Positions 1 through 3,000 of a stretch of 7,356 nucleotides of DNA are shown piece by piece. The position numbers were made by a program. The DNA is from a virus (Duplodnaviria; Heunggongvirae; Uroviricota; Caudoviricetes): the IMG/VR virus record IMGVR_UViG_2778261453_000014, one strand, 5' to 3'. How positions within the stretch are numbered: the stretch's first letter is position 1; each line of letters opens with the position of its first letter.

Positions 1-3000
1 CAGACATTCTGCCACGTGATCATGTAGCATAAGTGACCTCCGATTATCTACAGACTGCCATCCTGAATTTACCTTCCCTTAATGAAATAACAATAAAAAA
101 CAAACCACGCAAAAACAATAAAATAACACACAAAAAAAACTAAATAATAAACAAAAATAATCACCTTATTTTATTATTTTTTGAGGGGGCAATTACTGAA
201 CAAAAAACGCTGACTATATACTCAAAACCAAACAACTATTCTGCCAATCAGGTATCATGGCAACACACGGAATTACCGTGTTTTTGCCTTCTCTGCCCAT
301 ACAATACGGGCATATACTTCATACTCTATTGTAATATTTCTATCCATGCGCCCCACTCCATTTACCTGTAAATAATATTCAAAATATTTATCACAGAAAT
401 CGTTTTTGGCCATGAACTGAGCACACTATAAAGTCCGGAACTGACTCTTTGTTAAATTACCTTAACGTTACCAGTAACACCTTCATAACAAAACATCACG
501 GTATACACTGGGTACGGATATATTCCTGTGCTCCTTCCAGTTGCTTCTGCATTGCCATCAGCCGTTCTCTGAGGATGAAATAATCCCGTTCAGCGGTGTC
601 TGCCAGTCGGGGGCCGGTTGCATTATCCACGCCGGAGGTGCCGGTGGCTTCACGCACGGTACCGGAGCAGGTGGCGTTGATCCGCAGGCGCTTACGACCA
701 GCGGCAACATCAGCACGCAGAGTTTCATTTTCAGCTCTCGCATCGGCTAATTCCCTCGAGTATCTGGCATCAAGTGCAGCGACATCACGCTGGCGTACCT
801 GCATATCAGTAATTGTCACGTTCGCCAGCTTCAGCTCACTGGCTTTTTTATCGCGTTGCGCTTTGTAGGTAATGGCGTTATCGCGGTAATGATTCAGCCC
901 CAGACTAAGCACACCACAGGCTACCAGCAGGACAATAATCACCACACACAGAACACGGTTCATATCCCCCTCACCCCACCAGCCATGACAAAGTTAAGAC
1001 GCGCCAGGCAGTGGAAAAGCAAATAGCAACCAGCATTAGTGAAAATGAAATGCCGACGATTACACAGAGGATCTTCGCCAGCGTTATGAGCTTGTCTGAC
1101 ATGCTTAATCCTCTTCACGATTTCAACGCAATGACCAGTTTTGCCAGCCCATACAGCATCGGAGACACAGCAATACCGACCGCCACCCACTTAATAGCAA
1201 AAGCCAGCGCTCTGCTGACGTCATCAGTTACAGGCGCTTTCAGTTCAAGGCCGTTTTTCATAGTCAATCTCAACAGAATTCGTTTATACTTTCCCATGTT
1301 CTCCCTTGCCTTACTCAAGGTCAGAAACACAAAACCCCGTTTGCGGCCAACAAACGGGGTTTTACTTTTATTCACTTAGTTTTTGCCAGTTCGCAGGATT
1401 TCGTGTTATCCGCCCGCGTTGGCCAACGTCATTTTTCAGCAAAATATTCTGCTTATCTGTCAATTCCCCAGCACGCCAGTGCACTTTCCTGGTCTCGCCG
1501 GGATACCTGACCGTAGCAATTATTTGAGCGGATACGGCAGTCTCTGCCACCGTCCTTAATCCACCAGCGAATCGCTTCGCAGGCACCTTTTCGATCACCT
1601 GCATTAATCCGTCTGTAAAACGTAGACGGGAAACACTTACCGGGGCCAATGTTATAAGGACAAAATGACGCGATACCCGCCTTCTGGGGTTCGGTCAGCG
1701 GTACTTTAATATTGCGCTCCACCCACTCCAGCGCCTTATCACGTTCAATGGCGTTAACCTGGTCGCACTTTTCCTTCGATAACTTCATACCCGGGACGAC
1801 AGGCTTACCATCCACTCGGGTGGCACCGCGGCATATGGTCCAGATCCCCGCACCATCACGGTATGCCGTGGTGTGGTTACCTTCTTTTTCGTCAAGAAAC
1901 TGGTCGAGGATTTCAGGCGCAGACGTCCCTGCACCAATCAGCGCCAGAACGGCAGCCGACAGGCCGTATCTGATTTTTGCGTTCATGGATATTTATCAGG
2001 ATTTATCGGTTCCGGCCCCCTGGATATGTTAAGTCTTCAGCCCGCCGGTGGTGGGCACTGGCGTAAACCCAACAATGTGAGATGGCTGCCTCGCAAAGAT
2101 AATGAACAGATATGAATGAAGAAAATACAGCGCTTTTTGACAGAATTTTCACTCTTGAGTTACAGGTCGGTTTTCTTCTCCCAAAGATAATCAAAGCCAT
2201 GGATGCACTTGGTAAGAATAACGCTGTGTCAGATTACCTGATCGCCGAAATGGAACATCTCATTAAAGAAATACCAAAGACCGATGCTCGTGATGATAAA
2301 AGATTCCTCAGGGCTGCTGAAAATGCTCTTTCGACCGTGAAGCGCAGCTTAGACGCGCCGCAAGATCAAGAATAGTTTCTTTCATTTCGTCTAATGCAAG
2401 TACCTCATCTTTTGTTGGGGTGCTTTTTTCAATTCAGAGATATAGCACTCCAGTTGTTCAATACGTGATTCAATATCATCTTTTTCTGACCGCAATGCCG
2501 TCGGTGGCGTCTTCAGAGAACCAGTAATTCTTCCCGGTAGCTTTCCTCTGTAGGTTATCAACACGTCCTGCGCCTCTAAAATGATGGGCCGCTTTTCCGG
2601 CAACGGACCATCCCCTTCACATAACCCGGCAGCAACATCCATGAAAAACTGCTTCGCCTGCTTTTCGCCTCAGCTTCGTAAAACTCCAGCGTGGCTCCTT
2701 CAGTACGGTCAAGACTAATCGCCACATCTGGCAACAACAGTGACGGATACCCACCAATTTCCGGTGCCACAGTAACAGTAATCTTATCCGGGTAATTATT
2801 TATCCCTTTAACAACCAGTTCGTATTTTTTCTTCATCGCTTTACTCTCCCCGCGCCGCCTTACGACGGTCCTCTCTGATTTTGAAATACAGGTTAGAAGG
2901 GCCGACCTGTGGCTCTCCTTCAATAGCCACCGCCTGCATCAGTGTGTACGGCGTAATGGCAACCGGTCCGCCGTATGGCTGCCAGCCCTCTTTCAGTTTG

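Follow-up and report, generated by a model that had tools for sequence, protein, structure and literature searches.

A conserved plus-strand accessory gene behind a structured, covarying head in the lysis region of a decayed Escherichia coli prophage

The DNA analyzed here is a stretch of 7,356 nucleotides from IMG/VR virus record IMGVR_UViG_2778261453_000014 (the window), the part of a decayed lambdoid Escherichia coli prophage that carries its late-regulation and lysis genes; 8 complete genomes, CFSAN004176 for example, are 99.5-99.9% identical to it over positions 1400-3600. Our subject is an open reading frame (ORF) of 87 codons that runs antisense to the lysis genes. An earlier note on this DNA had placed it on the plus strand at 2112-2375, in the gap between a DUF1327 remnant and the endolysin gene, and it lies exactly there, with the neighbors that were claimed and as the sole plus-strand gene in that gap. 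Comparison with its relatives indicates that 2112-2375 is a real, conserved prophage accessory gene. It is preceded by an element of ~115 nt, which we call the head, that is better conserved than the proteins encoded behind it and is common to all homologues of the ORF. The parts of the unit are as follows.

1993-2036, plus strand: promoter-like part of the head, from 82 aligned heads and a hidden Markov model (HMM) match.
2037-2111, plus strand: structured 5' leader, from covariation in 82 heads and the fold of the window.
2112-2375, plus strand: 87-residue ORF with an ATG start (WP_001001501.1, PHROG 18136).
2398-2431, plus strand: intrinsic terminator, a 10-bp stem (2398-2425) followed by TTTTTT.

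The ORF has a GC content of 42.4%, against 53.6% for the lysozyme gene and 46.1% for the DUF1327 region, so that its composition deviates from both neighbors and is more AT-rich than the endolysin gene, as the note had judged by eye. The length of the frame alone is no evidence of a gene, because clearly spurious antisense ORFs of 90-122 residues occur in the same window; it is purifying selection, together with the conserved upstream element (E 5e-16), that sets this ORF above chance. In codon alignments, the ratio of nonsynonymous to synonymous substitution rates (dN/dS) is 0.08-0.36 in every pair with unsaturated dS, the exception being the near-identical pair of the window and locus L007, where a value of 0.54 comes from just 9 differences. 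Against the 61% homologue that tblastn finds in phage CharmingMan, many of the changes fall on third codon positions, and one Ser codon has gone from AGC to TCT. The note had recognized no family for the product. Searches of Pfam, NCBIfam, and PADLOC with the ORF and its relatives likewise returned no match, but the HMM of PHROG 18136, a family of unknown function, aligns with residues 1-87 of 87 at E 9.5e-55, and RefSeq lists the product as hypothetical protein WP_001001501.1. A word-indexed search recovered 30 close relatives, mostly E. coli variants of 87-91 residues plus a Citrobacter protein of 68% identity, and an exhaustive profile search of 1.8 billion representatives yielded only 9 relatives, of which the divergent ones are 26-51% identical. 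The homologues come from E. coli, Citrobacter, Xenorhabdus, Pantoea, and Enterobacter as well as from phage CharmingMan, and the ORF is retained at identities of 26-94%. With a profile of the wider family, 129 proteins are retrieved, all from Enterobacterales, HK633 gp65 included. The ORF recurs in seven independent contexts, running antisense to the late operon and lying near lysis genes in every one.

E. coli prophages: ORF between DUF1327 and lysozyme.
Citrobacter: ORF upstream of the holin gene.
P0033 locus: ORF between post-Q genes and the holin gene.
P0035 locus (Xenorhabdus): ORF adjoining methyltransferase and holin genes.
P0032 loci: ORF between LysC and terminase.
CharmingMan-like phages: ORF between a glycosyltransferase-like gene and HNH/terminase.
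L027: ORF convergent with a DUF1327-like gene.

Conservation as an ORF in homologous regions, the absence of which would have counted against the earlier note, is thus found in the form of purifying selection across unrelated contexts. Of 5426 complete E. coli genomes, 44 contain the ORF in full.

The cassette is one of a large family inserted antisense in late operons of temperate phages of Enterobacterales, in which a single head stands before many kinds of cargo ORF; by BLAST clustering, these cargoes make up at least 21 unrelated groups. Most of them are unannotated helical proteins of 56-100 residues; others are DUF1883, DUF6602 (268 residues), an Asp-protease-like protein, and a zinc-ribbon protein. 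We define the family by the succession of ATCAGG..CCCTGG, TAnnnT, TCAGCC, a helix P2, the sequence GATGGCTG in the loop of a helix P3, and a Shine-Dalgarno (SD) sequence with a start codon 20-29 nt further on; the loci that carry it are L008, L010, L021, L027, L030, L033, L035-L157, and L241-L302. An HMM built from 78 heads, from which the window copy and its near relatives were left out, matches the window at 1993-2106 with the E-value given above, and this is the sole match in the window (nhmmer). The pattern occurs in at least 120 stretches of the viral collection. Among the 96 distinct matches listed, some 80 are genuine: their lengths cluster at 50-53 nt, and each has an SD and start codon 20-29 nt downstream. 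The head is thereby placed in at least 80 phage contigs. Phages HK022, HK633, mEp213, mEp043, ES18, SPN3UB, vB_SosS_Oslo, and CharmingMan all have the head, annotated in none of them, and among the genes that stand behind it are HK022 gp23 ("moron gene product"), ES18 gp25 ("possible moron; function unknown"), and HK633 gp65. By blastn, it is present in 222 of the 5426 E. coli genomes. The exact core 18-mer is found in 63 stretches of species-representative genomes, with ~17 chance matches expected; ~50 of the stretches, from about as many species, belong to Enterobacterales, the genera being Pantoea, Xenorhabdus, Photorhabdus, Enterobacter, Citrobacter, Erwinia, Pectobacterium, Kluyvera, and others. 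The nearest flanking ORFs of at least 150 residues are oriented opposite to the cassette in 117 of 122 flank calls (96%). The window cassette shows both the conserved head and the opposite orientation, as the lysozyme, DUF1327, Q, and Rz genes all lie on the minus strand. A locus may hold more than one such unit: L043 has two heads on its minus strand, at 4293-4420 and 2241-2368, with an HK022-gp23-like cargo and a 154-residue Asp-protease-like cargo, and multiple head cassettes with differing cargo are also seen at L254/L255, L283/L292, and L301/L302.

Within the promoter-like part of the window head, an inverted repeat, ATCAGG...CCCTGG, lies at 1996-2000 and 2019-2023 and is followed by a -10-like hexamer, TATGTT, at 2025-2030 and then by a 6-nt variable spacer. 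Across the 82 aligned heads, both T residues of TAnnnT are invariant, the A is at least 90% conserved, and the middle three bases vary freely, and the motif always stands 6 nt ahead of TCAGCC. Such a TAnnnT pattern is the signature of a sigma-70 -10 element. Because this signature is held at a fixed distance, we predict a transcription start at or beside TCAGCC, position 2037 of the window. The upstream inverted repeat, P0, is 77% paired if it is read as RNA; with that value and its position upstream of the predicted start, it is possibly a protein-binding site in the DNA and not an RNA helix.

The consensus head continues from ATCAGG..CCCTGG, TAnnnT, and 6 variable bases into TCAGCC, P2, a linker of ~10 nt, P3, the SD, and the start codon. 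Over the 82 heads, P2 is 97% paired and 5 of its 8 pairs show compensatory changes, with variants such as CAGUG/CACUG, CCAUG/CAUGG, and CAGCG/CGCUG. One of its pairs appears as C-G, U-G, or U-A, and since the U-G form is present in 44 sequences, a plus-strand RNA is favored over a minus-strand one. For P3, the figures are 82% paired and compensatory changes at 3 of 6 pairs. The observed covariation score, which is not corrected for phylogeny, exceeds that of 500/500 column shuffles, and registers slid out of place are 27-45% paired. A further pairing, P1, is putative: GGCUGA, in the P3 loop, complements UCAGCC at the 5' end, and both strands are nearly invariant. If formed, P1 would be a pseudoknot or a mutually exclusive alternative to P3. 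In the window, TCAGCC occupies 2037-2042 and P2 occupies 2043-2050/2056-2063, and folding shows both P2 and P3, the latter as GUGAG/CUCGC at 2077-2081/2090-2094 around the loop AUGGCUGC, which contains GGCUG. The consensus P3 is GAGG-GAUGGCUGAUUA-CCUC and the consensus SD is AAGGA; the window allele has retained the promoter part along with TCAGCC and P2, while its P3 is shorter and both P3 and SD diverge, the weak SD reading AAUGAAC (2100-2106) where close relatives have AAGGAAC. An early hairpin reading of the window, GCCCGCC/GGTGGGC, was replaced by the family-wide P2 register. A variant head without P2, found in Xenorhabdus and Photorhabdus and at L028, has TCAGCC, an A/U-rich linker, and then GAGGGATGGCTGATTACCTC, with P3 kept; P2-less loci are L244-L246, L249, L252-L255, L267, L270, L274, L276, L283, L286, L288, L291, L292, and L294, and these heads occur in several copies per genome, each before different ORFs.

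The head is like the cis-regulatory 5' leaders and small pseudoknot riboswitches of Rfam in its compactness, its covarying helices, its invariant loop nucleotides, and its SD-proximal helix. It differs from them in that it has no Rfam match and that the pseudoknot pairing P1 lacks covariation support. With Rfam 15, the only hit to the window region at E <=10 was a chance L10-leader match on the terminator, and 13 loci with canonical heads gave no match at E <=0.1. The invariant GAUUACCUC on the 3' side of the consensus P3 (at L089 6181-6308, for example) resembles what we take to be the 3' end of 16S rRNA, GAUCACCUCC. The consensus loop AGGGAUGG and the SD AAGGA presumably resemble paired CsrA sites, and the window allele lacks both GGA motifs.

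At the other end of the unit, the terminator was found by a terminator scan and has a folding energy of -13.7 kcal/mol. In CharmingMan, Citrobacter, L021, L027, and L033, compensatory changes have preserved its hairpin. Across the family, a strict hairpin plus T run within 130 nt of the cargo stop codon is present in 29 of 82 cassettes, compared with 23 of 410 control windows. A different hairpin, following an A run just upstream of the head in several loci (L008 ~540-580; L033 ~4880-4915), would be an intrinsic terminator for the late strand, located past the cassette.

The head begins 7 bases past the lysozyme start codon, and comparison with prophages that share both flanks bounds the cassette at ~2062-2106 and ~2304-2312. 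What lies between these flanks varies. At L005 and L006, the same slot holds a minus-strand gene of 161-178 residues. At L009 (phage PhiR5_1), it holds an unrelated plus-strand ORF of 86 residues, and the head there (L009 2121-2224) is degenerate, with TCACCC for TCAGCC, P2 kept, and no GGATGGCTG. The record labels this 86-residue ORF "DUF1823 containing", an assignment that we set aside since the Pfam match (E 0.023) is below threshold; kinship with the 87-residue ORF was likewise rejected (hhalign 0.3%). At L304 (E. coli FDAARGOS_1295, 1195-1561), the slot holds a head cassette whose 79-residue plus-strand cargo resembles HK022 gp23; its P3 is GGGG/CCCC, and it is convergent with an intact DUF1327 gene of 104 residues, with a 4-nt overlap. 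A match to window 2000-2400 is found in 492 of the 5426 complete E. coli genomes, mostly to just the first ~65 bases (window 2000-2064), which are the 5' half of the head beside the lysozyme gene. The statement in the note that genes antisense to a late operon are uncommon therefore does not apply to this slot, where an antisense gene is not rare and at least one of the matching genomes carries another head-driven cargo. The suggestion that the ORF is accessory cargo, by contrast, gains from the comparison: other content occupies the same slot, and the ORF is under selection in unrelated contexts.

The genes around the cassette in the window are the following.

496-963 and 558-743, minus strand: Rz/Rz1.
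1453-1986, minus strand: endolysin (lysozyme), the left neighbor (Pfam Phage_lysozyme, E 2e-25).
2391-2836, minus strand: DUF1327/YdfR-plus-coiled-coil late gene, a pseudogene (Pfam DUF1327; PHROGs 2091, 1085, and 406).
2841-3068, minus strand: DUF1737 fragment fused to the last ~14-18 residues of a class II holin.
3367-3525, minus strand: DUF3927 gene.
4539-5312, minus strand: antiterminator Q gene.

The holin proper is absent from this lysis module. Compared with the frames of intact relatives (L003 and L009), the DUF1327 gene has two frameshifts, one at ~2576-2642 and one at the T run near ~2424, which is T6 in the window and T7 in the relatives. The antisense ORF is intact within this decayed module.

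The product of the ORF has a mass of 9.9 kDa and a pI of 4.97, contains no Cys or Trp, and shows no hydrophobic segment or signal peptide. The charged, helix-rich character noted from the sequence is borne out by 16 D+E and 12 K+R residues and by an AlphaFold2 model of three helices (residues 3-33, 38-56, and 63-80), which was computed from a 20-sequence alignment and has a mean predicted local distance difference test score of 82.8. The model predicts a soluble, acidic three-helix bundle. Conserved positions concentrate in the loop between the second and third helices, where P55 is invariant among the closer homologues and D62 across the extended family, and this loop is a plausible binding surface. 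A sequence-profile search of the PDB gave nothing below E 0.9, fold searches returned generic helical bundles only, and none of 11 family members matched the anti-phage defense HMMs of PADLOC 2.0 at a meaningful E-value. A relation to the HK022 gp23 family was not detectable. The family of ES18 gp25 (PHROG 10490), however, aligns with the ORF family over the first two helices (hhalign 85%, E 7e-6) and is a probable distant homologue. ES18 gp25 has the same head, the same antisense placement, and the same convergence with a DUF1327 gene; it differs in that it lies in a tail-gene cluster and not in the lysis cassette, and in its C-terminal third. Because no catalytic or DNA-binding signatures are apparent, the product most likely binds another protein, and a small, soluble, protein-binding accessory factor is the most likely description of it. 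Any particular role for the protein would be improbable, and for the immunity, anti-defense, or regulatory functions named in the note, PADLOC, Pfam, NCBIfam, and fold searches were all negative.

Taken together, we consider it likely that the ORF is a real gene, borne by an autonomous moron cassette in antisense orientation, one of the head family described here. The cassette, ~1993-2431, would be transcribed from a sigma-70-type promoter with the -10 element TATGTT. The predicted transcript of ~395 nt would start at or beside TCAGCC (2037) and comprise a folded leader of ~75 nt, the 87-residue ORF, and the terminator at 2398-2431. Since the unit opposes the Q-dependent late operon and carries its own signals, expression independent of late transcription is to be expected, most likely from the repressed prophage. 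That expression is specific to lysogeny is a proposition on which we would take neither side. Once the lysis genes are transcribed, the unit would be silenced by collision or pairing with the late transcript. The leader most likely sets mRNA stability, translation, or both; in the consensus, P3 would join GAGG, which looks like an SD, to CCUC, which looks like an anti-SD, a short way ahead of the real SD.

Morons of lambdoid phages include HK97 gp15, lambda bor, and HK022 genes 20, 22, and 23 (Juhala et al. 2000, as summarized in PMC3594210). They share with the ORF the status of an extra gene in a late operon, absence from relatives, deviant GC content, and promoter-like and terminator elements of their own. 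The window unit shows DNA that is absent from or different at the same position in relatives, a factor-independent terminator of its own, and a deviant base composition. Unlike the morons that searchable papers treat as individual insertions, the cassettes described here have in common one covarying head of ~115 nt in front of at least 21 cargoes, almost always antisense. The ORF itself is thus a moron, of a known kind; a conserved covarying head is what we did not find described. Neither the ORF nor the head is described in the searchable literature, and the sequence of the head does not appear there; the anti-sRNA loci that Tree et al. 2014 described proved to lie at a different position. 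Integron cassettes offer an analogy, with many unrelated small cargoes, a conserved flanking element, and recurrent hot spots. Integron cassettes are promoterless, however, and are moved by an integrase at attC, whereas the element shared here is a promoter and leader with no associated recombinase, and exchange would proceed by homologous recombination.

Several observations count against this reading of an autonomous, functional cassette. A generic sigma-70 promoter scan did not call the TATGTT site; the idea raised in the note of a promoter of the ORF's own agrees with the conserved promoter-like element, leader, and terminator. The -35 region is poorly conserved, and because the inverted repeat brackets it, the promoter could need, or be blocked by, some factor; both the start site and the promoter activity are suggested by conservation. 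For P1, a scan in which this pairing was not fixed turned up variants of the U-G or mismatch type only, with not one compensatory pair among them. The window allele has a degenerate P3 loop and a weakened SD, and may be poorly translated. Searches of Pfam, NCBIfam, PADLOC, PDB profiles, and folds gave no clue to a binding partner. The prophage is decayed, with the holin lost and the DUF1327 gene frameshifted. Finally, at L004 (E. coli JNEC-KY202, 1501-1813), a 71-bp deletion corresponding to window 2107-2177 has removed the start codon and first 22 codons of the ORF, which is unannotated there, while the head, the remaining ORF, and both flanks are kept, so that at least one lineage can do without the gene.

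A bolder proposal, which we put forward tentatively and regard as doubtful, is that the head acts in cis as a regulatory RNA not yet described, with a pseudoknot or switch at its 5' end that is read by a host or phage factor or by a ligand; that it also serves as a homology handle by which temperate phages of Enterobacterales swap small accessory genes as antisense cassettes expressed in lysogeny; and that the three-helix cargoes (the ORF, HK633 gp65, and ES18 gp25) are one fast-evolving family with a common kind of target. If true, morons would in effect have a cassette system that brings its own promoter. It is in morons that prophages carry genes that alter the host, for exclusion, defense, virulence, and stress traits, and finding them and the timing of their expression is still done case by case. 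A searchable head marks accessory cargo directly, in at least 21 families that are almost all of unknown function, DUF1883, DUF6602, and the families of HK022 gp23 and ES18 gp25 being examples. It provides one tractable promoter and leader, the regulation of which would apply to all cargoes, and it suggests a route of exchange between phages that otherwise share little sequence. At the window locus, what had been an anonymous ORF becomes a defined transcription unit for which both the 5' and the 3' end are predicted.

Two alternatives we judge improbable, and to about the same degree. In the first, the working product would be the RNA and the peptide would be secondary; the transcript, as an antisense RNA in cis or as a roadblock to transcription, would hold down leaky late (lysis) expression in the lysogen. 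Antisense RNAs have precedents in lambda paQ and oop and in P22 sar. PMC2629481 cites sar and the Q antisense RNA. An orientation opposite to the late operon is nearly universal in the family, the 3' end of the unit runs tail to tail into the DUF1327 coiled-coil gene of the late strand, overlapping its end, in E. coli, L027, L028, L030, and L033, and the structured leader is more conserved than any cargo, all of which would suit a functional RNA. Against this, selection on the cargo in the window is clearly at the protein level, and protein folds such as DUF1883, DUF6602, and the Asp-protease-like cargo are unlikely to be irrelevant behind the same head. Because the antisense target varies, from tail genes in HK022 and ES18 to lysis genes here, there is no common RNA target. 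An effect of the RNA could also be additional to that of the protein and not an alternative to it.

In the second, the ORF and the convergent DUF1327 coiled-coil gene would be a functional pair, for example a modulator of lysis or late functions and its lysogeny-expressed antagonist, with the overlap coupling their expression. In relatives, an intact DUF1327 ORF of 176 residues reaches ~2302 and so lies tail-to-tail over the last ~24 codons of the ORF, and minus-strand ORFs overlapping the plus-strand ORF occur in L012-L020. After its coiled coil, the late-strand DUF1327 protein has a tail, "..K(K/R)xxPxKxE..DE(L/M)K(E/D)xILDWAAxL", that ends inside the 3' end of the plus-strand ORF and has the terminator hairpin within it in antisense (window 2302-2500, minus strand; L003 ~1810-2010; L010 ~6200-6400; L027 355-789; L030 5221-5388; L033 5218-5955). 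The same tail ends in the ORF 3' end in E. coli, Citrobacter, L027, L030, and L033. In Citrobacter, it is a free-standing ORF of 57 residues (57% identity, E 2e-16), and in L027, it is fused to a DUF1327-like domain, in a partner that aligns colinearly with the DUF1327 coiled-coil protein over its whole length (E 6e-4). The pairing recurs in a quite different genome region of ES18, where the DUF1327 gene gp24 is convergent with the head cassette of gp25, and at L304, the intact DUF1327 gene is paired with another head cassette. The shared tail may be a true partner domain, or it may be only a mirror image of the cassette end, that is, of a conserved ORF end and terminator read in antisense. 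In CharmingMan-like phages, the ORF is present with no evident partner ORF, the partner in the window is a pseudogene while the ORF is intact, and DUF1327 itself has no known function.

The identification of the product as an IraP-like anti-adaptor, which would bind RssB and stabilize RpoS, is very unlikely. It is suggested by UniRef, which names the HK633 gp65-like subfamily (P0061, Enterobacter) "Anti-adapter protein IraP", and by the similar size (86 residues) and all-helical layout of IraP. The Pfam model of IraP, PF10796, recognizes true IraP at 4e-34 and none of 10 family members even at E 10, and a profile-profile comparison of the ORF family with 12 true IraP proteins gave a probability of 2%. 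The identity with IraP was rejected on these HMM and profile-profile tests, and the UniRef name is probably a propagated misannotation. Least credible of all is a chance frame that encodes nothing, antisense to a longer former gene of the DUF1327 family: although in relatives the final ~24 codons of the ORF face DNA that codes, or once coded, for the DUF1327 coiled-coil protein, longer DUF1327 proteins exist (PHROGs 2091 and 1085), and long spurious antisense ORFs occur elsewhere in the window, the plus frame is under purifying selection, the overlapped segment included, homologues at the CharmingMan, P0032, P0033, and P0035 loci have no DUF1327 gene, a conserved head and terminator flank the ORF, and the AlphaFold model from a diverse alignment is confident.

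Two further genes of the window may be mentioned. Downstream of Q, the minus-strand frame 3611-4369 encodes a multi-pass membrane protein of 252 residues, annotated as hypothetical and without a Pfam family, in DNA of 29-40% GC. The second plus-strand cargo among the minus-strand prophage genes, with no head motif upstream, is a 319-residue lipid A deacylase of the LpxR family at 5702-6661, which lies between Q/YlcG and a truncated Ser/Thr phosphatase gene in flanks of 25-29% GC.

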